Shown one piece after another: positions 2,993-63,864 of a stretch of DNA of 64,000 nt. Positions within the stretch are counted from its first letter, which is position 1, and every line of letters begins with the position of its first letter. The notes beneath the pieces were generated by a model that made no database searches, was not told the DNA's origin, and worked only from the letters and a program-made list of their open reading frames with translations. The stretch is from Alphaproteobacteria bacterium (GTDB lineage Bacteria > Pseudomonadota > Alphaproteobacteria > JAJTHO01 > CANGYM01). The translations under genes and the position numbers were made by a program. The stretch covers positions 7,171-71,170 of the forward strand of contig JBILRW010000004.1 of NCBI GenBank assembly GCA_044372405.1. Direction: 5' to 3'.

Positions 2993-3406
2993 TTAAATCA
3001 CCACCCAATCCTCCCGCGTTAACCCCTTCACTTTGGAAAAATGGGTGTTGCTGGTGACCAGGATGGCCTCTGCCTGCAGGGCGTGGGCGGCAATCATCAG
3101 GTCCATGGCGCCGATTTGGGTTTCTTGGGGCGTTCCTTGGGTCTGCAGGTCATGGCGGATTTTGGCATAAAAGGGCGTGACGGCCTCACACCAGGGCAGG
3201 ACGTTCAAATAGGCCAGAAAGTCATCCAGAGCCCTTTGCATCAAACGGGGGGTGGGCCGCTTCTCAATCCCATGGCGTAACTCTGCCACCGTGATCACCG
3301 ACACAAGCACATCTTTCATGGGGATGGCCTGTAATTTTTCCAGAACGGACAGGGGCTTGGTGCGCATAATCGCGCTGCAGGTATCGGTATCTAAGAGGTA
3401 ACGCAT
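2993..3406 (-). CDS. vapC: PIN-domain toxin VapC
   Basis: MRYLLDTDTCSAIMR...VAELRHG...TSNTHFSKV PIN pattern; 1-nt gap to upstream antitoxin gene. Confidence 0.8.
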   Translation of the reverse strand: MRYLLDTDTCSAIMRTKPLSVLEKLQAIPMKDVLVSVITVAELRHGIEKRPTPRLMQRALDDFLAYLNVLPWCEAVTPFYAKIRHDLQTQGTPQETQIGAMDLMIAAHALQAEAILVTSNTHFSKVKGLTREDWVVI

Positions 3407-3407
3407 G

Positions 3408-3635
3408 TTAAAACACACCCCGCTCTTGAGGGGGATTATCCTGACGATTCGCCAGAAAATCCTGGGGTATGGCAGGCGGGGTGGCGAAATAATCGCTCCA
3501 CGACAGGGGCTTGGGGGATAAAATGACCTTATCACCCTCTTGGGTGATAAAAACCTCCTTGGCCGTAAAACGAAAGGCCTTGGGCAACCGCACCGCCTGA
3601 GAACCGCCGGATTGAAACACTTGGGTAATGGTCAT
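3408..3635 (-). CDS. vapB: AbrB/MazE-fold antitoxin VapB
   Basis: 75 aa MTITQVFQSGGSQAVRLPKAFRF..., SpoVT/AbrB swapped-hairpin antitoxin signature immediately upstream of vapC. Confidence 0.7.
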   Translation of the reverse strand: MTITQVFQSGGSQAVRLPKAFRFTAKEVFITQEGDKVILSPKPLSWSDYFATPPAIPQDFLANRQDNPPQERGVF

Positions 3636-3707
3636 GGGGTCACTGTTTTTTTATATGCACAATAAGTATATATTATCATGGATTCAGGGGGATGGCAAGG
3701 GGGAATT

Positions 3708-4049
3708 CTAATGCAGCTCCCCAAGCCCAATAATTTCCTTGGGGGTATCGCCTGGGAATTCGGCGATGAGTTTCAGGTTTCCGCCCAGGGCCTCAACCAA
3801 TTCCCGTACCTTGGATACGGGCAGATCATTTTGGCGTTCCCATTTGGAAACTTGAAACTGTTGCACGCCCAGCAGCGTTGCCAGATCAATTTGGGTTTTG
3901 TGCAGGGATTTTCGTAACTTTTGCAGGGTGATTTCTTCGGCAATTAATTGCTCTGCCCGCTGGGCGATACGGCTTTGCTGGTCGGGGGAGAGTCCTGCGA
4001 TGATGTCGTTTAGGTTGACGGGCATGAGCAGGCTCCTTTCATTCATCAC
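3708..4049 (-). CDS. XRE-family HTH protein, HigA-like antitoxin (apparently orphan)
   Basis: 113 aa with HTH segment QKLRKSLHKTQIDLATLLGVQQFQVSKWE; no toxin ORF upstream, where a palindromic element sits instead. Confidence 0.55.
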   Translation of the reverse strand: MMNERSLLMPVNLNDIIAGLSPDQQSRIAQRAEQLIAEEITLQKLRKSLHKTQIDLATLLGVQQFQVSKWERQNDLPVSKVRELVEALGGNLKLIAEFPGDTPKEIIGLGELH

Positions 4050-4108
4050 AAATATATCATAATCAGAATATATTGAAAATGGGATAATCTATCACGGTCA
4101 GCAAAAAC

Positions 4109-4230
4109 AGGACTTACGCAGAACCTTTGTCATTGCGAGCGCAGCGAAGCAATCCAGGAAGGCCGCCACTGGAAAGACTGGATTGCCACGCCTCCTGCGG
4201 AGGCTCGCAATGACGTTGGGCGCAAGTCCT
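4109..4230. repeat. type-1 palindromic element (RPE-like), copy 1
   Basis: aggacttacgcagaac-gtcattgcgagc...ctggattgccacgcctcctgcggaggctcgcaatgacg...cgcaagtcct; terminal inverted repeats plus internal palindrome; 9 related copies in window. Confidence 0.85.
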
Positions 4231-4236
4231 GAGGCC

Positions 4237-7155: not shown

Positions 7156-7197
7156 GGGCGGGGAAAAAATCGTTTTGTGTCACTGTATTCCTTCAGA

Positions 7198-7316
7198 ACT
7201 TAGGCAGAACCTTCGTCATTGCGAGCGAAGAGAAGCAATCCAGAAACGCCGATACCAGAAAGACTGGATTGCCACGCCTCCTACGGAGGCTCGCAATGAC
7301 GTTCTGCGTAAGTCCT
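7198..7316. repeat. type-1 palindromic element, copy 2
   Basis: cgtcattgcgagcgaagagaagcaatccag...ctggattgccacgcctcctacggaggctcgcaatgacgttctgcgtaagtcct between fabZ and tRNA-Arg. Confidence 0.85.
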
Positions 7317-7397
7317 ATCCTTAGTCCCATACCAGATTATCATGGGGGGGACAAATGGTTTGTGGGGGCGTGCAGGGCTGTTTATTTTTGAAAAACC

Positions 7398-14848: not shown

Positions 14849-14900
14849 GGTGATGATGGCCAAGGGATTTTATAAAGCCTGTGGGGCACCTCTATTAGCC

Positions 14901-14990
14901 GTCATTGCGAGCGCAGCGAAGCAATCCAGAAAGGCTGCTGTTCCCGGAAACCCTGGATTGCTTCGTCGCGTTGCTCCTTACAATGACGAA
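14901..14990. repeat. type-1 palindromic element, copy 3 (degenerate second arm)
   Basis: gtcattgcgagcgcagcgaagcaatccag...ctggattgcttcgtcgcgttgctccttacaatgacgaaaaa. Confidence 0.8.
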
Positions 14991-15026
14991 AAATTGGGGT
15001 TATTATGTAGAGGTTTTGAGCTGATT

Positions 15027-16929: not shown

Positions 16930-17257
16930 AAAAGGCGGGGTCGGGGCAGCAGGATTTGTCCCCCGGGTCAAGGGCGAGACGCCAAAAAAGTTGCGTAGCA
17001 AAGCCCCGAAGGGGCGGTCTTTTTTGGTGCGAGGCGAAGCGGACCCTTGAGGCGGGGGACAAATTCTGCTGGGTGGGAGCCTTTTCCTTGTGGGCCGAAC
17101 GCGGCTCCCGCCCCCACATTCAGGTAACAGGTATCAGGTTGCAGGTAACAGAAAACCCCGTCCTCTGGGGCTTGTTATTTCAAGGATACGTCTTGCTCTA
17201 CTTTTTTTCCTGTCACCTGTCACCTGTCACCTGTCACCTGATTCACCCCGCCACGTT
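16930..17257. repeat. ~325-bp composite element copy A (conserved 190-bp core plus heptad-repeat hairpin)
   Basis: ~90 percent identical to 37874-38197; hairpin arms caggtaacaggtatcaggttgcaggtaacag (17120-17150) and cctgtcacctgtcacctgtcacctgtcacctg (17208-17239); internal long-range pairing cagcaggatttgtcccc with ggggacaaattctgctg. Confidence 0.85.
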
Positions 17258-17355
17258 TCTGAAAAAAAACCGCTTGTCTTTCCGCAAGACTTTCTCAACA
17301 TCTTTGCTATAAAGTGGGGGGCAACACCCGCATCGCCACAACCAAGGACTGTATT

Positions 17356-24210: not shown

Positions 24211-24226
24211 AAGGCCCCTCTCAAAA

Positions 24227-24331
24227 CCTCAATGTTTCGTCTTTGCGAGCCTCCGTAGGAGGCGTGGCAATCCACTCTTTCCTTTGTCGGCCTTTCTGGA
24301 TTGCTTCGCTGCGCTCGCAATTGACGTTCTG
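24227..24331. repeat. type-1 palindromic element, copy 4
   Basis: cgtctttgcgagcctccgtaggaggcgtggcaatcca...ctggattgcttcgctgcgctcgcaattgacgttctgcgtaagtcct. Confidence 0.85.
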
Positions 24332-24430
24332 CGTAAGTCCTGAGACATAAAAAATGGCTCTGTTGTCTAACAGGGGCCTGGGCCACCATCTGTAACAAAA
24401 GTCACTTTTTGCAAAAAAAAGGTGAAAAAG

Positions 24431-24823: not shown

Positions 24824-24865
24824 GGGGGTAAGGATACAGGAAGACAATAAAAAAAGGATTATTGC

Positions 24866-24995
24866 GGCACCTCTAAAAACCCCCAATTTTTCGTCATTGC
24901 AAGTCGCAACGCGACGAAGCAATCCAGGGTTTTCGGGGGCTGTGGCCTTTCTGGATTGCTTCGCTGCGCTCGCAAAGACGGTTTTTAGAGGTGCC
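24866..24995. repeat. type-1 palindromic element, copy 5 (both arms of gaagcaatccag type, outer IR ggcacctctaaaaac)
   Basis: tttcgtcattgcaagtcgcaacgcgacgaagcaatccag...ctggattgcttcgctgcgctcgcaaagacggtttttagaggtgcc. Confidence 0.8.
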
Positions 24996-25086
24996 CTTTC
25001 TGATGAACACCCCGATGATGAACACCCCGACTGGACAATGTTTTGCCGCCGGGATAGGGTAGACGAGACGATTGAGTAAGGTCCCC

Positions 25087-32011: not shown

Positions 32012-32060
32012 ACTAGCACAGGGGGCCTGCAAAAAGAATGTGAAAGTTTTTGGCAGGTGG

Positions 32061-32180
32061 GGATCTAAAACCCTCAATTTTTCGTCATTGCGAGCCTCCG
32101 TAGGAGGCGTGGCAATCCAGGATTTCGGGAGCTGTAGCTTTTCTGGATTGCTTCGCTGCGTTCGCAAAGACGGTTTAAGA
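32061..32180. repeat. type-1 palindromic element, copy 6
   Basis: ccctcaatttttcgtcattgcgagcctccgtaggaggcgtggcaatccag...ctggattgcttcgctgcgttcgcaaagacgg. Confidence 0.85.
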
Positions 32181-32287
32181 GTTGTCTTAAAAAAAACCTT
32201 TAAAAAAACGATGCCTTCTTAAGGTTTATGGTCTAGAATGCCCCCACAACAGAAACAATGAATGTTTTTTTTAAGGAGACCTACGGC

Positions 32288-35515: not shown

Positions 35516-35591
35516 GGGGGTGTAGCTCAGCTGGGAGAGCGCCTGCTTTGCACGCAGGAGGTCATCGGTTCAATCCCGTTCACCTCCACCA
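35516..35591 (+). tRNA. tRNA-Ala (anticodon TGC)
   Basis: GGGGGTGTAGCTCAGCTGGGAGAGCGCCTGCTTTGCACGCAGGAGGTCATCGGTTCAATCCCGTTCACCTCCACCA with G3:U70 identity pair and encoded CCA. Confidence 0.9.
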
Positions 35592-37873: not shown

Positions 37874-38197
37874 GAAAAGGCGGGGCGGGGCAGCAGGATT
37901 TGTCCACCGGGTCAAGGGCGAGACGCCAAAAAAGTTGCGTAGCAAAGCCGCGCAGCGGCGGTCTTTTTTGGTGCGAGGCGAAGCGAACCCTTGAGGCGGT
38001 GGGCAAATTCTGCTGGGTGGGAGCCTTTTCCTTGTGGGCCGAACGCGGCTCCCGCCCCCACATTCAGGTAACAGGTTGCAGGTAACAGGTAACCCAGCCC
38101 TCTAGGGCTTGTTATTTCGCTGGTACGTCTTGTTCCACTCTTTTTTCCTGTTACCTGTTACCTGCAACCTGTTACCTGATTCACCCCGCCGCGTTTT
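37874..38197. repeat. ~325-bp composite element copy B
   Basis: ~90 percent identical to 16930-17257 including heptad hairpin arms 38065-38093 and 38147-38178. Confidence 0.85.
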
Positions 38198-38380
38198 CCA
38201 TAAAATCGCTTTTGGCTGAACCTTCCTTTGCCAGCAAGGGATTATGAGATTATGAACACAGGCTCTTAGGGCACCTCACCCCTTGGCCCATTTTTTGCAC
38301 CACCCTACCCGAACACCCCTCTTTACCCTTTATCAACCAAAGGGGGCGTACACTGATCAACACATAGTCATGGTGAAGCG

Positions 38381-41931: not shown

Positions 41932-42235
41932 CACACTCCCTGCTGGCGAGATTTTCAAATTCCGCCCAACTCATAAGGGGTGCAGGCCGGTCTGTGACAC
42001 AGTAAAAATATGATAACTGACTCTCAGTGAGGGTTAGGCACCCCACAAGCAGAGCCATCTGTTTCTGTGGTGTCTAGCACCAAAAACTGAGAAGCTGAGA
42101 ACAATCCTCAAGCGTAAATAAGAGCATCTGGTGGATGCCTTGGCGATTGCAGGCGATGAAGGACGTGCTAGGCTGCGATAAGCAGCGGGGAGGGGCCAAG
42201 ACCCTTTGATCCGCTGATTTCCGAATGGGGGAACC

Positions 42236-42335
42236 CACCTTTCAGGTGACAGGTGACGGGTGACAGGTAACAGGTTTTGCATTGCGCAGGCCTGTCACCT
42301 GATACCTGTAACCTGTCGCCTGATCTAGGTATTCT
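42236..42335 (+). other. 23S rRNA intervening sequence 1 (helix 9 position), heptad-repeat hairpin
   Basis: arms caggtgacaggtgacgggtgacaggtaacagg / cctgtcacctgatacctgtaacctgtcgcctg replace helix 9. Confidence 0.8.
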
Positions 42336-42729
42336 TTGGCTGAACACATAGGCCTTAGAAAGCAAACCCAGTGAACTGAAACATCTCAGTAGCTGGAGGA
42401 AAAGACATCAACCGAGATTCCGTAAGTAGTGGCGAGCGAACGCGGAACAGCCCAGTGCTCTCTCGAATGTAACTGGAACGACTTGGAAAAGTCGGCCATA
42501 GTGGGTGATAGCCCCGTACAGGTAAGAATAGAGAGAGACTCGAGTAGGGCGGGACACGTGAAATCCTGTCTGAACATGGGGGGACCACCCTCCAAGGCTA
42601 AATACTCGCAATCGACCGATAGTGAACCAGTACCGTGAGGGAAAGGCGAAAAGAACCCCCATAAGGGGAGTGAAATAGAACCTGAAACCGGATGCTTACA
42701 AGCAGTTGGAGCGGGCGCACCCGAGGGCT

Positions 42730-42860
42730 GCGCCCAGGTAACGGGTAGCAGGTAACAGGTAACAGGTAGAAACTTTCGGGTCATAAACTTTTGTTAAATT
42801 GATCTGAAATTTTTCTTCCTGTCACCTGTCACCTGTCACCTGTCACCTGGCCGCGCCCTC
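42730..42860 (+). other. 23S rRNA intervening sequence 2 (helix 25 position), heptad-repeat hairpin
   Basis: arms caggtaacgggtagcaggtaacaggtaacaggtag / cctgtcacctgtcacctgtcacctgtcacctgg with AT-rich 50-nt loop, at the helix-25 IVS site known from Salmonella. Confidence 0.8.
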
Positions 42861-43808
42861 CGGCGCGCCCGTGACAGCGTACCTCTTGTATAATGGGTCC
42901 GCGACTTAGTGTAGCAAGCAAGGTTAAGCCGATAGGTGGAGCCGAAGCGAAAGCGAGTGTGAATAGCGCGTTTAGTTTGCTGTATTAGACCCGAAACCAA
43001 GTGAGCTAACCATGGCCAGGCTGAAGGTTGGATAACACCAACTGAAGGGCCGAACCCACGTCTGTTGAAAAAGACGGGGATGAGCTGTGGTTAGGGGTGA
43101 AAGGCCAATCAAACTTGGAAATAGCTGGTTCTCCGCGAAAACTATTTAGGTAGTGCGTCAGACGAATACCATGGGGGGTAGAGCACTGAATCGGCTAGGG
43201 GGGCGCGAGCCTTACCAAACCGAATCAAACTCCGAATACCCATGAGTACTATCTGGCAGACAGGCATCGGGTGCTAAGGTCCGGTGCCGAGAGGGAAACA
43301 GCCCAGACCGCCATCTAAGGTCCCCAAGACTATGTTAAGTGGGAAAGGATGTGGGAAAGCCATGACAGCTAGGAGGTTGGCTTAGAAGCAGCCATCCTTT
43401 AAAGAAAGCGTAATAGCTCACTAGTCTAATCAAGCATTCCTGCGCCGAAGATGTAACGGGGCTCAAACATAGCACCGAAGATGCGGGCGCGCCTATGGCG
43501 CGCGGTAGCGGAGCGTTCCCTAAGCCGTCGAAGCAGTCCTGTCAGGGGCTGTGGAGGTATGGGAAGTGAGAATGCGGACATGAGTAGCGACAAACAGAGT
43601 GAGAGACTCTGTCGCCGAAAGCCCAAGGGTTCCTATCCAATGCTAATCAGGGTAGGGTTAGTCGATTCCTAAGGCGAGGCCGAAAGGCGTAGTCGATGGG
43701 AACACGGTTAATATTCCGTGACCTTTGGTCCGTGACGGATCGAAACGATTGTACTTTCTTATCGGATTGATAAGTGCAGTCCAACGGTTCCAGGAAATAA
43801 CGGACCAG

Positions 43809-44380
43809 CTTGGGATTGTTTAAGGGAAAAGAAAAAAGCACGCCAGAGGCGACGTGCTAGAAATTTATTCGTTGTTGCGTCGACGATCAATTTCGTCGAG
43901 TGCAGCGAATGTGATGCATCCTGGAAGCATCGAAATTGCCCCAGGAATGTTTAAAACAAAAAGAAAAAAGAATCTCCATCCTCCTTCAACAAGGATCATT
44001 TCTGCTCCTTGCTTTGGAAATAGGGAAATTCTGTCGGTTTTAAACTCCTTCTCCAGAAGAATTGCGGAGAAGTAAACAAAAAACACGACTGTAACTAAAG
44101 AAGAAACGACTAAATTTAGGCGTCTTTTTTTGTACTTATCCATGGTGTTAAGTTATTTAACTAAGGTTTATTTTGACATTATGCAGTGCAGTGCAGTGCA
44201 GTGCAGTGCAGTGACATTTGTCACATTACGAAAAATAATTTCCCTTAAACAATCCCAGGCGTTCAGGTGACAGGTAACGGGTAACAGGTGACAGGTTGTG
44301 GGTTACAGGTTATGGGTAGATTTTCTACCTATTTTCTGTTTCCTCTTCCTGTTACCTGTCTCCTGTTACCTGTTACCCGG
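43809..44380 (+). other. 23S rRNA intervening sequence 3 (helix 45 position), composite ~570 bp
   Basis: 19-bp inverted repeat cttgggattgtttaaggga / tcccttaaacaatcccagg bounds an AT-rich 410-bp module with a 92-codon ORF (43865-44143, minus) and a (GCAGT)5 microsatellite (44183-44207); followed by heptad hairpin 44263-44379. Confidence 0.8.
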
Positions 44381-44649
44381 ACAATGATCGTACCCGAAAC
44401 CGACACAGGTGGGCAGGTCGAGTAGACCAAGGCGCTTGAGAGAAGTATCCTGAAGGAACTCGGCAAATTGCTCCCGTAACTTCGGAAGAAGGGAGCCCGT
44501 CATGAAGGCAACTTTTTGGCGGGGTCACAAAAGAGGGGGTTGCGACTGTTTAACAAAAACACAGGACTCTGCGAAGTCGTAAGACGAAGTATAGGGTCTG
44601 ACGCCTGCCCGGTGCCGGAAGGTTAAGGAAGGATGTGCAAGCATTTGAC

Positions 44650-44729
<80 letters not shown>

Positions 44730-45170
44730 TGAATGGCGTAACGACATCCCCACTGTCTCCAGGATATACTCAGCGAAATTGAATTCCCCGTGAAGATGCG
44801 GGGTTCCCGCGGTCAGACGGAAAGACCCCGTGCACCTTTACTACAGCTTTACACTGGCTCTAGGAATATCATGTGTAGGATAGGTGGGAGACTTTGAAGC
44901 CTTGGCGCCAGCCAGGGTGGAGTCAACCTTGAAATACCACCCTTGATGTTTTTAGGGTCTAACCCAGGTCCGTGAATCCGGATCGGGGACCGTGTATGGT
45001 GGGTAGTTTGACTGGGGCGGTCGCCTCCCAAATGGTAACGGAGGCGCGCGAAGGTAAGCTCAGTACGGTCGGAAATCGTACGTCGAGTGCAATGGCATAA
45101 GCTTGCCTGACTGCGAGGCTGACAAGCCGAGCAGAGACGAAAGTCGGTCATAGTGATCCGGTGGTTCTTC

Positions 45171-45224
<54 letters not shown>

Positions 45225-45253
45225 AACGCCCAAGCGTCCACAGCGACGGCGTT

Positions 45254-45331
<78 letters not shown>

Positions 45332-45339
45332 TGGTACGT

Positions 45340-45380
<41 letters not shown>

Positions 45381-45688
45381 TGCCGTGGGTGTTTGATGAT
45401 TGAGAGGATTTGCCCCTAGTACGAGAGGACCGGGGTGAACGTACCTCTGGTGTACCGATTGTGGCGCCAGCCGCATCGTCGGGTAGCTATGTACGGAACG
45501 GATAACCGCTGAAAGCATCTAAGCGGGAAACCGGCCTCAAAACGAGTCATCGTAGAGCCGTAGTAGACCACTACGTTGATAGGTGGCGTGTGAAAGGGTG
45601 GTAACACCTGAAGCTAAGCCATACTAATCGCTCATCTCTCTTTTGGATTGTTCTCGCGTCTTATGTTTTAACAAAGACGCATCTCATG

Positions 45689-49131: not shown

Positions 49132-49459
49132 GATCCCCTGCCCCCGATACCAAACGAAAGGTCCGGCTGCAATACGGACAGACGATTTGCCTTTGAGATC
49201 CCATGGCCAGATAAACCTTTGGATGTCCCAAGGGCCCGCCGCCGCCATCACATGAGGGACGCGGGGTTTTGACATCAATAACCTCGAAGGCATCCGCGTT
49301 TGGAGGGGTCAGGGGTGAAACGGATGGGATCATGATACGGGGTTTCCTGGATTTTTCCTGTTTTTTATAAAGGGGTTTGGGGGAAAAATCAATGGGAGGG
49401 TTTAAGTGTTTGTTTTTAGCCTTTCCTTAAAGAATTGGCTTTTATAGTCATAGGATTCG

Positions 49460-49578
49460 GGACTTAGGCAAAACCTTGCGTCTGGCGAGCGCAGCGAAGC
49501 AATCCAGAAATGCCGATACCGGAAAAACTGGATTGCCACGCCTCCTACGGAGGCTCGCAATGACGTTTTGCGTAAGTC
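49460..49578. repeat. type-1 palindromic element, copy 7
   Basis: ggacttaggcaaaaccttgcgtctggcgagcgcagcgaagcaatccag...ctggattgccacgcctcctacggaggctcgcaatgacgttttgcgtaagtc; flanked by direct ATAGGATT. Confidence 0.85.
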
Positions 49579-49619
49579 ATAGGATTGTTTTGGGAAGCCA
49601 TAGAGGAACCACAACCACC

Positions 49620-52667: not shown

Positions 52668-52720
52668 TTGCATGATTCATTTTATAAAGACCCTGCCGTT
52701 AAAAAGCAAGATGATTGTGG

Positions 52721-52836
52721 AATTTACGCAGAACGTCATTGCGAGCCTCCGTAGGAGGCGTGGCAATCCAGTCTTTTGTGGCGGCATTTCTGGGTTGCTT
52801 CGCTGCGCTCGCAATGACGAACACTTTGCGTAAGTC
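52721..52836. repeat. type-1 palindromic element, copy 8
   Basis: aatttacgcagaacgtcattgcgagcctccgtaggaggcgtggcaatccag...gggttgcttcgctgcgctcgcaatgacgaacactttgcgtaagtc. Confidence 0.85.
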
Positions 52837-52856
52837 ATTGATTGCAAAGGACTTTC

Positions 52857-52894
52857 TGTCACCTGTCACCTGTCACCTGTCCCCCGTCACCTGA
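52857..52894. repeat. tandem heptad array (TGTCACC)x5, single arm
   Basis: ctgtcacctgtcacctgtcacctgtcccccgtcacctg; supplies the last codons (VTGDR-stop) of coaBC. Confidence 0.85.
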
Positions 52895-58917: not shown

Positions 58918-60075
58918 ATGGTCCGATTGGTCGCGTTCCTCTGGATATTAGTGTTAGGCAGCGCGAGCATGGCCCTGGCCGAAATCCCCATTGCCGCCGC
59001 GGGCCCCATGACCGGTCCCTATGCCAGCATTGGGGAGCAACTGCGGCGCGGGGCCAGTATGGCGGTAGAGGACATCAACGCCGCGGGGGGTCTGTTGGGT
59101 CAACCCCTGTCCCTGCGGATTATGGATGATGCGTGTGATCCGAAGCAGGCGACGTTGGTGGCGTCTCAACTGGCCAATGATCATTATACGTTTGTGGCGG
59201 GGCATTTTTGTTCCAGTGCGTCCATTCCGGCGTCCAATGTTTATAACGATGCGGGGATCATTATGGTCTCTCCGGCGTCCACATCCCCCACCCTCACCGA
59301 GCGTAATCTGACCAATATCTTTCGGGTGTGTGGCCGCGATGATCAGCAGGGGGTTATTGCTGCCGATTATATCCGCCGTCATTTTGGGGATCAGAGGCTG
59401 GCCATTATTCACGATAAAACCTCTTACGGCAAAGGCCTGGCCGATGTCACCAAAAAGGCATTGAATGAGGCCGGCCTTCAGGAAATTCTCTATGAAGGCA
59501 TCACCACGGGCGAGCGGGACTTTACGGCCCTGATTACCCGTATGAAATACCATAATATCGGTGTTTTGTACGTGGGGGGATACTTTACAGAGGCCGCTTT
59601 GCTCCGCCGCCAGGCCCATGATCAGGGCCTGAATATCCCGCTGATTTCTGGCGATGCGCTGGTGACGCGGGAATACTGGACCATTGCGGGGAAAACGGGG
59701 GAAGGCACGCTGATGACCTTTAACCCCGACCCTCGAAAAAACCCAGGCGCGGCCAAGGTGGTGCAGGCCTTTCGCGACCAAGGCTATGAGCCCGAGGGCT
59801 ATACGCTCTATAATTACGCCGGTGTTCAGGTGTATGCTGAGGCCGTCAAACGCGCTGGCACCACGGATGCCAAAGCCGTTCGTGATGTTATGCACGGCGG
59901 GACCTTTGATACCTTACTGGGCCCCATTACCTTTGATGCCAAGGGCGATGTGACCAAGCCGCAATATGTGGTTTATGAATGGTCCAAGGGGGAGTATGCG
60001 GAGATTGAGGATGGGGGACGGGGGACAGAGGACGGAAGACAGAGGACGGAAGACGGAGAAAAGAAGGGGAAGTAA
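58918..60075 (+). CDS. branched-chain amino acid ABC transporter substrate-binding protein (LivK/LivJ family)
   Basis: signal peptide, type-I periplasmic binding fold; last ~20 residues EDGGRGTEDGRQRTEDGEKKGK are encoded by a GGACRG repeat array. Confidence 0.8.
   Translation: MVRLVAFLWILVLGSASMALAEIPIAAAGPMTGPYASIGEQLRRGASMAVEDINAAGGLLGQPLSLRIMDDACDPKQATLVASQLANDHYTFVAGHFCSSASIPASNVYNDAGIIMVSPASTSPTLTERNLTNIFRVCGRDDQQGVIAADYIRRHFGDQRLAIIHDKTSYGKGLADVTKKALNEAGLQEILYEGITTGERDFTALITRMKYHNIGVLYVGGYFTEAALLRRQAHDQGLNIPLISGDALVTREYWTIAGKTGEGTLMTFNPDPRKNPGAAKVVQAFRDQGYEPEGYTLYNYAGVQVYAEAVKRAGTTDAKAVRDVMHGGTFDTLLGPITFDAKGDVTKPQYVVYEWSKGEYAEIEDGGRGTEDGRQRTEDGEKKGK
60015..60057. repeat. GGACRG-type tandem repeat array (single arm)
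   Basis: ggacgggggacagaggacggaagacagaggacggaagacggag, same unit family as the hairpin at 9373-9491. Confidence 0.8.
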
Positions 60076-61920: not shown

Positions 61921-62640
61921 CTAAAACACCCCCACCCCATAAATCACCCGATGAATCACATAAGGATACTGCACCAACATTTTGTTTTGGTTCAGGGCCA
62001 GGATTTCCTGGGGGCGTAGCGGTTCCCCCCGGGCGGGATGGGCGTGGGCGCCGATGCGCTTTAGGGACAAAAGAAAATCAGCCAAGGTTAACGGTTTTGT
62101 TGGGTAAATCTGGGTGGTAATGCTTAGGGCTGCGGGATGCAGCAGGGCCACCAGATCGTCCTTTGTGGGCCAGGGAATGATTTTATCGGCCCGGCCCAGG
62201 GCATAAAGCGCCTCATAAAACGGTGCAAAGCTGCCGGATCCCAGGGTTGTTAAAGCAATCACGCCCTGGGGTTGCAAAAACGCCCGCCAGGACAGGGGCG
62301 CCCGGGGGTCATCAAACCACGGCAAACTCATGCTGCTGGTGATGACATCAAAATGGGGACCCGGGGCAAAGGGCAGGGCCTCCGCCCGTCCCACCACACG
62401 CTGCGCCGGCCGCTGAATCTGTTGCAGCATGGCCAGGCTGGGATCCACGGCGGTATAGCGGATGGGATCCGGCAGGGCCTCCCCCACAAACCCCGTCCCC
62501 GCGCCTATATCACAAAGGCTTTGCAGATGCGGACATTGCCCCTGAACCCAATGGGCCAAATCCGTGGCCACCTGCCGCTGAATCAGGGCGTGGTCGTTAT
62601 AACGGGCGGCGGCGCTGTCAAAGGCTTGGGGGGGACTCAC
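61921..62640 (-). CDS. bioC: class I SAM-dependent methyltransferase, BioC-like (malonyl-ACP O-methyltransferase)
   Basis: YNDHALIQRQVA and CDIGAGTG motif I as in BioC; GTG start overlaps bioH-like stop (GTGA). Confidence 0.55.
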   Translation of the reverse strand: MSPPQAFDSAAARYNDHALIQRQVATDLAHWVQGQCPHLQSLCDIGAGTGFVGEALPDPIRYTAVDPSLAMLQQIQRPAQRVVGRAEALPFAPGPHFDVITSSMSLPWFDDPRAPLSWRAFLQPQGVIALTTLGSGSFAPFYEALYALGRADKIIPWPTKDDLVALLHPAALSITTQIYPTKPLTLADFLLSLKRIGAHAHPARGEPLRPQEILALNQNKMLVQYPYVIHRVIYGVGVF

Positions 62641-63374
62641 GCCAAGACCTCCAAGATTGTCTCTGCGCACCAGGCCGGATGGGTCAGGGGCAACAGATGA
62701 CTGTGGCCCGGATGGATTGCCACCGTTTGGGCGTGGCTCGCCCAGGGGTAGGTGATGATGGGATCGTTAGCGGAGGTTAAGGCACAGAAAATGGGCGGGG
62801 GAGAATTGGATTTATCCACAACGTCATTGCGAGCCTCCGCAGGAGGCGTGGCAATCCAGTCTTTCGGCTCGCTGCATTTCTGGATTGCTTCGCTACGCTC
62901 GCAATGACGAGGGTTATGTGTAAATCCTTGGGAAACCTCTTTTTGCATGGCTTTCAAGGCGTCCTGCAGTATGTTTTGGGGCGTGATGCACGGATAGGGT
63001 CCCCCAGCCCTTTCCTGAAAATCCCGTAACACCTGGGTGGGATTTTTCTCAAAACCCCGCGCCATGGCCTGTAAAACCCGTAGGGGAATCCCCCCGGGAT
63101 TTTGGGGACTGGCCACAAAACAGGGGGCGCTGTTAATGGCAATCCATCGGGCATGAGGGAGCGCCTGATACCCCGAAAAAAAGCCATAAGAATGCCCGAT
63201 CCACAGGTCGTAATCCTCATGTCTCATCCCTAAAAAATCCCAGTTTTCCATAGCTTCACAGTGCCAGGACGGCGGCAGATACCGGATCATCTCCCCCCAT
63301 ATGCCGGGGCCATAGCCCCAACCGTGCACCAGCAACACCCGCATACTATGCCCCAACATAACTGGCGCGACCAT
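62637..63374 (-). CDS. bioH: BioH-like alpha/beta-hydrolase (pimeloyl-ACP methyl ester esterase) carrying an in-frame type-1 element insertion
   Basis: LLVHGWG, nucleophile elbow GHSYG, SAPCF, then after the insert ANDPI (Asp) and HPGHSHLLP (His) collinear with E. coli BioH; residues CERSEAIQKCSEPKDWIATPPAEARNDV are the translated repeat. Confidence 0.65.
   Translation of the reverse strand: MVAPVMLGHSMRVLLVHGWGYGPGIWGEMIRYLPPSWHCEAMENWDFLGMRHEDYDLWIGHSYGFFSGYQALPHARWIAINSAPCFVASPQNPGGIPLRVLQAMARGFEKNPTQVLRDFQERAGGPYPCITPQNILQDALKAMQKEVSQGFTHNPRHCERSEAIQKCSEPKDWIATPPAEARNDVVDKSNSPPPIFCALTSANDPIITYPWASHAQTVAIHPGHSHLLPLTHPAWCAETILEVLA
62808..62927. repeat. type-1 palindromic element, copy 9, inside bioH-like CDS
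   Basis: cgtcattgcgagcctccgcaggaggcgtggcaatccag...ctggattgcttcgctacgctcgcaatgacga; no stop codon in the host reading frame. Confidence 0.85.
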
Positions 63375-63864
63375 ACAGCGGCGTGAGGGGGGCCGACGGA
63401 GCGTTGAGATAATCCACGGGCAGTAGTGGCCCCGAAAAAGAGTGCGCCGGCGGGTGATTCGTGGTTTCCATAACCTCAGAGGCATCGCCGCCGTAGCTGA
63501 GGAAAACCTGATCCTTATAAAACGGCAAAATCATGGGTTGATCCGGCGGGATGACCTGCTGATGCAGGCGAAACCAACAGACACGCAGCGCATCAAAGGC
63601 ATTGACGCCCTGAGCCTGCCAACCGGAGAGCTTCAGCGCCACCCCCACCGCCAACCCGATACGAATGCCGGTAAAAGACCCCGGCCCCCGCACAATACGA
63701 ATGGTTCCTTGACGAAGGATTCCCTGATCCTTATCGGTCAGCAAAGCTTGCAACGTGGGTAATAAGGTTTCGGCCAGGCCCCGTTGTTCTAAAAAGAGAG
63801 GCTCATCCTCCCCCCTGACCATAAAGGGGGGTTGGGACACCGTGTTAATCAACACATCAGGCAC
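63346..63864 (-). CDS. tsaB: tRNA threonylcarbamoyladenosine biosynthesis protein TsaB (YeaZ family)
   Basis: 172 aa; RGLAETLLPTLQALL...RGPGSFTGIRIGLAVGVALKL matches the TsaB core; stop abuts bioH-like start. Confidence 0.65.
   Translation of the reverse strand: MPDVLINTVSQPPFMVRGEDEPLFLEQRGLAETLLPTLQALLTDKDQGILRQGTIRIVRGPGSFTGIRIGLAVGVALKLSGWQAQGVNAFDALRVCWFRLHQQVIPPDQPMILPFYKDQVFLSYGGDASEVMETTNHPPAHSFSGPLLPVDYLNAPSAPLTPLYGRASYVGA

Follow-up and report, generated by a model that had tools for sequence, protein, structure and literature searches.

The window analysed here, a stretch of 64,000 nucleotides on contig JBILRW010000004.1 of an alphaproteobacterial genome assembly, contains nine copies of a palindromic repeat. 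The type-A copies of this family are most probably (we put the probability at roughly 0.8) miniature transposable elements with inverted repeats (MITEs) of the IS701 (ISAba11/ISPlag1) type, carrying as passenger a head-to-head dimer of a CGTC-like repetitive extragenic palindromic (REP) sequence. The first-pass annotation of this DNA had described a dispersed palindromic family resembling REPs or the palindromic elements of Rickettsia (RPEs). That likeness stands, but the copies are not simple REP units or bacterial interspersed mosaic elements (BIMEs), since the type-A copies appear to be MITEs in which only the interior is a REP-like dimer.

The family was defined by reading of the sequence together with a repeat search, which gave nine copies of about 125 bp each with 0 expected by chance. 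All of the positions first proposed (about 4.1, 7.2, 14.9, 24.2, 24.9, 32.1, 49.5, 52.7 and 62.8 kb) hold a copy, and a search of the window for further hidden copies found none beyond these nine. Two arm motifs, a 30-mer and a 37-mer, each have seven matches at ≤3 mismatches against 0 expected (100 dinucleotide-preserving shuffles), and the 11-mer GTCATTGCGAG occurs 14 times against 0.9 expected. The copies share 78–87% pairwise identity. Folded as a single strand, either strand gives one long hairpin with branches, at folding energies between −25 and −38 kcal/mol and z-scores of −3.6 to −6.7 relative to shuffles, and the consensus structure obtained with RNAalifold agrees with this single-copy fold.

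Every copy has two layers, an inner cargo of about 85 nt and an outer shell. The cargo is a head-to-head dimer, CGTCATTGCGAG..GCAATCCAG-loop-CTGGATTGC..CTCGCAATGACG, which in full reads C-GTCATTGCGAG-(side hairpin)-GCAATCCAG-(loop of ~20 nt)-CTGGATTGC-TTCGCTGCG-CTCGCAATGAC-G. Its halves pair with one another through P1 (GTCATTGCGAG/CTCGCAATGAC) and P2 (GCAATCCAG/CTGGATTGC), and each half can also fold alone via ATTGC/GCAAT. The side hairpin is CCTCCGTAGGAGG in seven of the nine copies; c3 and c5 have another small hairpin, GTCGCAACGCGAC in the case of c5 and a diverged version of this in c3. The first-pass annotation was right about the consensus sequence, about the nesting of the inverted repeats and about the palindrome inside them, and the two subfamilies that it distinguished by their outer termini are real. 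The type-A shell (c1, c2, c7, c8 and c9) follows the pattern (T/C)AGGACTTACGCA.A.C ... G.T.TGCGTAAGTCCT(G/A), with terminal inverted repeats of 13–17 nt (TAGGACTTACGCA..TGCGTAAGTCCTG/A) in these five complete copies and at the right end of c4. The type-B shell (c3, c5 and c6) reads GGCACCTCTAAAAACC(CCCAATTTTTC) ... GGTTTTTAGAGGTGCC, and the type-B copies thus have the cargo of the others in a different, uncharacterised palindromic shell. One copy, c4, is a chimera with one terminus of each kind, its left arm being type B and its right end type A. The nine copies are as follows.

c1, 4108-4231, minus strand: type-A putative MITE of 124 bp with ends CAGGACTT..AAGTCCTG, 5 nt beyond the stop codon of glnA.
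c2, 7194-7317 (7189-7322 with its target-site duplication), minus strand: type-A putative MITE between tRNA-Arg and a fabA-like gene.
c3, ~14884-15012, minus strand: type-B shell with a degenerate left arm and, in arm 1, the alternative side hairpin GAGCAACGCGAC; upstream of a DUF2155 gene and separated by 36 nt from the preceding stop codon, that of an mlaD-like gene.
c4, 24214-24342, plus strand: chimera of a type-B left arm and a type-A right repeat, 4 nt downstream of the stop codon of a PEMT-like gene.
c5, 24865-24996, plus strand: best-preserved type-B copy, GGCACCTCTAAAAACC..GGTTTTTAGAGGTGCC; intergenic, 78 nt upstream of dsbD.
c6, ~32059-32190, plus strand: degenerate type-B shell between the divergent DUF218 gene and phaC.
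c7, 49458-49581 (49453-49586 with its target-site duplication), minus strand: type-A putative MITE upstream of a XerC/D-like integrase gene.
c8, 52718-52839 (52713-52844 with its target-site duplication), plus strand: type-A putative MITE of 122 bp between the coaBC stop codon and tRNA-Cys.
c9, 62806-62929 (62801-62934 with flanks), plus strand: type-A putative MITE lying in frame inside the coding sequence of a BioH-like esterase on the minus strand.

The type-A copies have the build of a MITE. Both ends fit TAGGACTTACGCA(N)A(N)C, the elements are 122–124 bp long in the window, and their non-coding interior is filled by the palindrome. Perfect 5-bp target-site duplications border c2 (AAGGA, at 7189-7193 and 7318-7322), c7 (AATCC) and c8 (GATTG), and the flanks of c9, GAGAA and GGGAA, are identical at four of five positions. 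A scan of genomes with the lineage-specific 37-mer gave 15 loci from four metagenome-assembled genomes (MAGs), JBILMD01, JBIIHL01, JBILTX01 and JBJTVN01, all labelled 'Alphaproteobacteria bacterium' and three originating in Lake Mendota. These belong to species other than that of the window, with syntenic genes at 73–85% nucleotide identity, and all of their copies are type A. In the resulting sample of 19 type-A copies (the window plus the four related MAGs), 17 span 120 nt from GGACTT to AAGTCC and the remaining two span 118 nt; 120 nt with two terminal bases at each end makes an element of 124 bp. A perfect 5-bp direct repeat is found exactly 2 nt outside GGACTT..AAGTCC in 10 of the 19, compared with a mean of 0.53 and a maximum of 3 in 5000 permutations. 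A test free of any assumed offset gave a mean longest shared flank word of 5.2 versus 3.43 ± 0.26. The duplicated target is AT-rich. An element of 124 bp bounded by a 5-bp duplication is the signature of a DDE transposase and not of a hairpin-specific tyrosine transposase.

The terminal repeat also identifies a candidate partner. The query TAGGACTTACGCAVA, scanned over metagenomes, matched at least 120 loci. Among the matches listed, it bounds dozens of MITEs of 90–200 nt with unrelated interiors, as well as full-length insertion sequences of 1.06–1.19 kb (loci L171, L196, L225, L233, L208 and L190). The protein encoded by the partner insertion sequence, of about 340 amino acids, matches the NCBIfam model NF049921 (IS701 family transposase; E = 1.9e-120, 402 bits, cut-off 250) and also Pfam DDE_Tnp_1 and DDE_5; these matches belong to the insertion sequence and not to window DNA. 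Perfect 5-bp duplications accompany 40 of the 80 paired-repeat elements among the metagenome matches listed (null mean 0.86, maximum 6). Searches with tblastn located relatives of the transposase on plasmids of Acinetobacter (50% identity), Planktothrix, Nostoc, Nodularia, Moraxella, Paraburkholderia and Piscirickettsia. The Planktothrix relative is annotated 'IS701-like element ISPlag1 family transposase', while the Acinetobacter relatives, whose records say only 'transposase', are judged ISAba11-like here by size and ends. A copy on an A. baumannii plasmid has identical ends, TAGGACTTACGCA...TGCGTAAGTCCTA, and the flank repeat AAGGT. In the metagenome loci and on this plasmid, then, the terminal repeat of the type-A copies is shared with an autonomous insertion sequence, as is expected of a MITE.

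On this reading, the type-A elements would derive, as non-autonomous forms, from an IS701-family insertion sequence (ISAba11/ISPlag1 clade) or would hitch-hike on one, and a transposase encoded elsewhere in the genome would act on them in trans. The unit amplified would be the composite and not the bare REP. The dimer and the terminal repeats fold together as a single long branched hairpin. Copies may subsequently swap sequence by recombination or conversion, to which the chimeric c4 and the lack of a duplication at c1 both point, and any role at the level of the host, such as that of a hairpin at mRNA 3' ends, would be secondary. The window elements share with the insertion sequences and MITEs of the ISAba11/ISPlag1 clade the same TAGGACTTACGCA repeat and a 5-bp AT-rich duplication, the non-autonomous metagenome relatives being 90–200 bp long; unlike the insertion sequences of that clade, they are non-coding and have an interior unrelated to the insertion sequence. 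A further likeness, offered as a lead, is to the Nezha MITE of Anabaena and Nostoc, which is described as 130–170 bp long, with a stable hairpin and AT-rich targets, and as sharing terminal and direct repeats with ISNpu3, which is absent from the host genome (PMC3184786). Nezha is likewise a small MITE, but its host phylum and interior differ.

Several observations weigh against this assignment. The flanks of c1 (GGCCT and TTTTT) form no target-site duplication, several type-A copies in the relatives also have none, and the type-B copies have neither a duplication nor a known parent element; the flanks of c5 were inspected specifically and none was seen. We take the duplications of the IS701 family to be 4–5 bp long, and those of ISAba11 presumably 5 bp, the direct example here being one plasmid copy only. 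No IS701 transposase gene was found by tblastn in the window or in the 15 loci of the related MAGs, and mobilisation in trans is therefore something that we infer; nor did this alphaproteobacterial DNA (the window and the 15 loci) contain any other member of the ISAba11/ISPlag1 clade. Conversely, the CGTC-like cargo is absent from all 120 metagenome matches listed for this terminal repeat, so that the link between shell and cargo comes from one lineage, and the REP-cargo composite appears from these sequences to be particular to it. Finally, the pattern of conservation is the reverse of that usual for MITEs, and of that to be expected were transposition the sole constraint, the terminal repeats being less conserved than the cargo arms. 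In a sample of 20 type-A copies, mean column identity is 99% in cargo arm 1 (used to find the copies), 97% in cargo arm 2 (independent of the search), 87% in the loop, 86% in the left terminal repeat and 82% in the right. This leaves room for an extra constraint on the cargo or for concerted evolution.

By its template, the cargo itself belongs with a known kind of repeat. Prokaryotic REPs have been divided into two superfamilies, one tagged GTAG and the other CGTC (Di Nocera, De Gregorio & Rocco 2013, BMC Genomics 14:522; PMC3733652). In the CGTC REPs, the terminal motif CGTC (or TGTC/CCTC) is unpaired, the stem opens with AT and the tail fits CCA; these REPs are mostly head-to-head dimers, mostly from Alphaproteobacteria, and lie near the 3' ends of open reading frames (ORFs) with occasional in-frame intragenic copies, and they 'apparently lack a dedicated transposase' (PMC3733652). 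REP dimers are also regularly found inside longer palindromes, as in CGTC-1 of H. neapolitanus and GTAG-15 of A. variabilis, for which no mechanism was proposed (PMC3733652). In the window, all nine copies read CGTCATTG or CGTCTTTG, and CGTC is unpaired when single units are folded. The stem begins with A-T pairs (ATTGC with GCAAT), and every unit has the unpaired 3' tail GCAAT-CCA-G. All copies are dimers with CGTC outermost, the hosts are mainly alphaproteobacterial, and no transposase gene is flanked by the units examined. The window repeat thus agrees with the published CGTC REPs in tag, AT stem, CCA(G) tail, foldable dimers, hosts, siting near 3' ends and lack of a transposase gene, and the published dimers within longer palindromes have the architecture seen here; the survey neither recognised those enclosing palindromes as a transposon shell nor reported target-site duplications for them (PMC3733652).

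The agreement is not complete. The four described CGTC families have stems of 8–9 bp and loops of 4–5 nt, variable loops being noted in the text only for CGTC-1 of Bradyrhizobium (PMC3733652), whereas the unit described here has a stem of 5 bp and an interior of 12–20 nt, sometimes with a second small hairpin. The peptides that the window repeat would encode (VIASEAKQS, RHCERSEAIQ, LLRFARNDG, DCFASLAMT) are also absent from the lists in PMC3733652. Because of the short stem and the unlisted peptides we call the unit CGTC-like; judged by sequence, it is probably a further sequence class and not a demonstrated member of CGTC-1 to CGTC-4. Rfam gave no match on any window copy at the gathering score, and none at E ≤ 1 on the elements in four loci with type-A or bare copies. 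A literature search with GTCATTGCGAGC, CTCGCAATGAC, the peptides FARNDG and ASLAMT and others returned chance matches only. Br-REP1 and Br-REP2 of Bradyrhizobium were considered and have different sequences, and the RepRanger paper holds nothing specific to this repeat.

The core is widely distributed. A scan of IMG/VR for GCAATCCAG-N15-45-CTGGATTGC yielded 108 loci, most with the frame GTCATTGCGAG...CTCGCAATGAC. The 68 non-redundant bare cores among them have the form YC-GTCATTGCGAG...CTCGCAATGAC-GR over 75–123 nt, with variable small hairpins between P1 and P2; the base C precedes GTCATTGCGAG in 62 of the 68 and G follows the opposite end in 60. No conserved outer shell surrounds these 68 cores, and no target-site duplication was detected around them at any offset or length. 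Type-B copies and type-A composites gave chance matches only, or none, in viral contigs. BLAST against plasmids found full-length cores in Novosphingobium, Methylosinus and Methylocystis, partial ones in Methylobacterium and Legionella, and one full-length core in the cyanobacterium Aulosira. The last of these (Aulosira laxa plasmid AP018309.1, 160554-160862; L253) lies within a different long inverted repeat, ..CCTTACCAAGGCTACGGTGTACAC.. / ..GTGTACACCGTAGCCTTACCAAGG.., and on sequence grounds may be a second example of a REP dimer nested in another shell. In high-GC alphaproteobacteria, bare cores also occupy both intergenic gaps around the portal gene of terminase-portal-protease clusters like those of gene transfer agents, with a conserved spacing of 1.37–1.39 kb (L038, L056, L086 and L098; IMG/VR). 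A transposase between these paired cores was considered and rejected, the enclosed gene being the portal gene.

Comparison with the related MAGs shows how the copies persist and change. The first-pass annotation had proposed to examine relatives at orthologous sites, and two window copies have counterparts there. At the site of c4, where both flanks can be aligned, locus L111 has a complete type-A copy with the duplication AGATA, while the window has the type-B left arm; the left arm of c4 would thus derive from exchange between copies (conversion). The copy in L118 lies in the same intergenic region as c8, downstream of the coaBC ortholog; this alignment covers only the coaBC side, as L118 ends at the element. 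It is in the opposite orientation to c8 and may therefore be an independent insertion. Taken as sequence comparisons, these cases suggest that old copies persist at orthologous sites across species. In L120, a copy separates two genes that abut in the window, the intergenic DNA being too diverged for a clean empty site. In L001, whose glnA is identical to that of the window, the match is lost a few bases ahead of c1, and L002 ends inside c1; L001 was rejected as an empty site for c1 because the divergence is complete before the edge of the element, indicating a rearrangement or an assembly break.

The strongest of the alternatives, although an unlikely one, is that these are structured elements selected by the host, either for a function in RNA (as 3'-end stabiliser, terminator or attenuator) or as the DNA site of a conserved protein, transposition accounting only for their arrival. 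Such selection is compatible with the MITE mechanism. It would fit the location of six of the nine copies in unidirectional intergenic regions and of four at 4–40 nt after a stop codon (glnA, the PEMT-like gene, the mlaD-like gene and coaBC), much as CGTC REPs of other genomes are enriched near ORF 3' ends (PMC3733652). It would also fit the retention of copies in the same intergenic region although the flanking genes are only 73–85% identical, the conservation of the cargo arms at 97–99% versus 82–86% for the terminal repeats, and the conservation of the core sequence across phyla. However, copies also occur in a divergent promoter region, within a coding sequence and beside tRNA genes, in both orientations; most copies are not followed by a run of T, and no Rfam family matches the elements even at E ≤ 1. 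High similarity between copies can moreover be produced by conversion, which is seen directly in c4.

A second alternative concerns the transposase. GTAG REPs in Pseudomonas and E. coli are moved by a REP-associated tyrosine transposase (RAYT), and the cargo has the architecture of the inverted REP doublets (REPINs) mobilised in this way, namely two inverted hairpin units with a spacer of about 20 nt forming one long hairpin. An inverted doublet transposed as a single-stranded hairpin by a Y1, IS200-like enzyme would leave no target-site duplication, as is the case for the bare cores elsewhere. The type-A copies, in contrast, have 5-bp duplications and terminal repeats identical to those of a DDE insertion sequence. 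The GTAG tag of RAYT-associated REPs is absent, CGTC standing in its place, and no Y1 transposase was found next to the bare cores examined or among about 20 scanned ORFs adjoining elements, the scan of the window being not exhaustive. The one survey of CGTC REPs reports no species in which CGTC units flank a RAYT or IS200 gene (PMC3733652). A REPIN/RAYT origin for the composite is on these grounds disfavoured, and we regard it as highly improbable. The window elements and the REPIN/RAYT system or E. coli BIMEs are alike in their inverted doublets, long hairpins and intergenic occurrence at about one per 7–8 kb; they differ in that the window elements have no GTAG, no RAYT seen, DDE-type duplications and no evidence of motifs for integration host factor or gyrase.

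An assembly or binning artefact, in which one repeat was spuriously copied or joins unrelated contigs, can be dismissed with near certainty even though short-read contigs do break at the element (L002 inside c1, L001 at its edge), because the copies differ from one another (78–87% identity), have individual duplications and flanks, and in two cases reappear in independent MAGs from other samples, within the same intergenic region; confinement of the copies to the window as an artefact, the outcome that the first-pass annotation had named as refuting its reading, is excluded by their presence in four other MAG species.

Turning to insertion contexts, the copies lie mostly at gene boundaries, as had been stated. 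The stated location of those at 14.9, 24.9 and 32.1 kb (c3, c5 and c6) inside the 5' regions of ORFs is probably a product of mechanical ORF extension, with open frames reading through the elements; the Pfam domains of these genes begin well downstream, and the start of dsbD lies after c5. By contrast, the copy said to lie inside a coding sequence does so. This is c9, which sits in frame in the gene for a BioH-like alpha/beta-hydrolase, adjoining a gene for a BioC-like methyltransferase. The mechanical ORF of the BioH-like gene spans 62637-63485 on the minus strand, with the true start likely at 63344, and c9 encodes ..GFTHNPRHCERSEAIQKCSEPKDWIATPPAEARNDVVDK.. within it. The insertion adds 124 + 5 = 129 nt, or 43 codons, so that the reading frame is preserved. 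Three of the six reading frames of the MITE are free of stop codons; together with the whole number of codons, this makes a coding insertion tolerable, as in bioH.

Homologues of 201–221 amino acids, among which one bears the name pimeloyl-ACP methyl ester esterase, can be aligned to either side of the insertion but lack about 42 residues (VSQGFTHNPRHCERSEAIQKCSEPKDWIATPPAEARNDVVDK), and the inserted residues are kept in a metagenome protein of 99% identity. The c9-bearing protein retains an intact GHSYG nucleophile motif as well as intact C-terminal motifs with Asp and His. In the AlphaFold2 model, the hydrolase core has a per-residue confidence (pLDDT) of >90, whereas residues 138–178, which correspond to the inserted segment, score 27–41, and the segment is predicted to form a disordered loop after the lid helices. 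At the position of c9, a BioH-like relative of 70% identity (P0003) has another in-frame insert of repeat-like sequence, ..PPSPPWGEGRGEGPETKK..LSLTLSLKGRGNSWD.., which suggests at the level of sequence that the lid region of BioH is an insertion-tolerant hot spot. Two other candidate coding copies, both in relatives, were rejected: the long open frame in L123 is artefactual, the OEP lipoprotein starting after the element, and the open frame in L117 has no domain.

Coding insertion of this kind recalls Rickettsia, whose RPEs are palindromic repeats inserted in frame in protein genes, where they add a peptide segment. The window family shares with them the palindrome and the in-frame insertion that adds a peptide, in one coding copy of nine, but it differs in sequence, its host is not an obligate intracellular bacterium, and its mechanism of insertion is visible in terminal repeats and a 5-bp duplication. 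RPE-4 and RPE-6 have themselves been classed as CGTC REPs (PMC3733652).

The host is a freshwater alphaproteobacterium that has not been cultured. The window has a GC content of 49–58%, and the closest genomes are alphaproteobacterial MAGs from lake water. The suggestion that the repeat load reflects a reduced intracellular genome is unsupported, as the flanking genes are ordinary housekeeping genes of free-living bacteria (PhaC, DsbD, TrkA, GlnA), and about one copy per 7 kb is also typical for REPs of free-living bacteria. Directly downstream of c1, a PIN-domain gene and a helix-turn-helix (Xre-like) gene at 2993-4049 on the minus strand adjoin glnA and may be a toxin-antitoxin pair.

The window also contains arrays of the heptamer GGTGACA/CCTGTCA, which form a second dispersed repeat family of this lineage. 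They are intergenic (2895-2938, 17121-17151/17209-17240, 38065-38093/38147-38178, 52856-52893 and 60016-60058), often occur as inverted pairs about 60 nt apart, and are found directly beside c8 in one case and also in the flank of L122. A direct repeat of about 330 nt (16931-17267 and 37875-38205; 93% identity over 219 nt) includes an inverted pair of these arrays. The 23S rRNA gene (42108-45648, plus strand) is 3541 nt long compared with 2925 nt for the Rfam model, and carries three large insertions at ~42240-42325, 42715-42855 and 44180-44390. Each consists of inverted heptanucleotide arrays, (CAGGTGA/CAGGTAA)n ... (CCTGTCA/CCTGTTA)n, and they look like intervening-sequence hairpins made of heptamer repeats. 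The Rfam scan of the window found no 16S or 5S rRNA gene. Protein-coding ORFs separate the 23S gene from tRNA-Ala(TGC) (35516-35591), which is 6.5 kb upstream of it; the rRNA operon is apparently split.

These results have practical consequences for annotation and assembly. The widespread ATTGCGAG/GCAATCC palindrome gives rise to spurious peptides (..HCERSEAIQ.., ..LLRFARNDG.., ..DCFASLAMT.., ..SLRAKRSNP..) and to false 5' extensions of genes, and its recognition would improve gene calls in alphaproteobacterial MAGs; in assemblies, the copies are contig break points and recombination sites. The bioH case provides a clean example of a transposon adding a 43-residue, predicted disordered loop to an enzyme without breaking its frame.

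Known kinds of element explain every feature of the family, which is an ordinary kind of selfish DNA, although its REP sequence class, which is very common, seems to be undescribed so far. What is also new is the identification of the shell as IS701-type, with the target-site duplications as evidence that connects, in one lineage, an 'orphan' class of REP with a specific transposase family. More tentatively, and on balance doubtfully, CGTC-type REP dimers may in general disperse inside the MITE shells of ordinary DDE transposons, those of IS701/ISAba11 type in the window and others in Aulosira and in the type-B copies; the conservation of the cargo would then reflect sequence-specific interaction of the REP with a conserved protein, the MITE having captured a functional module. 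The means by which CGTC REPs, the second great REP superfamily, disperse has been in question since 2013, as they have no associated transposase. For one lineage of these orphan CGTC-like REPs, terminal-repeat identity and 5-bp target-site duplications now implicate a mechanism, transposition by an IS701 element of the ISAba11/ISPlag1 clade.

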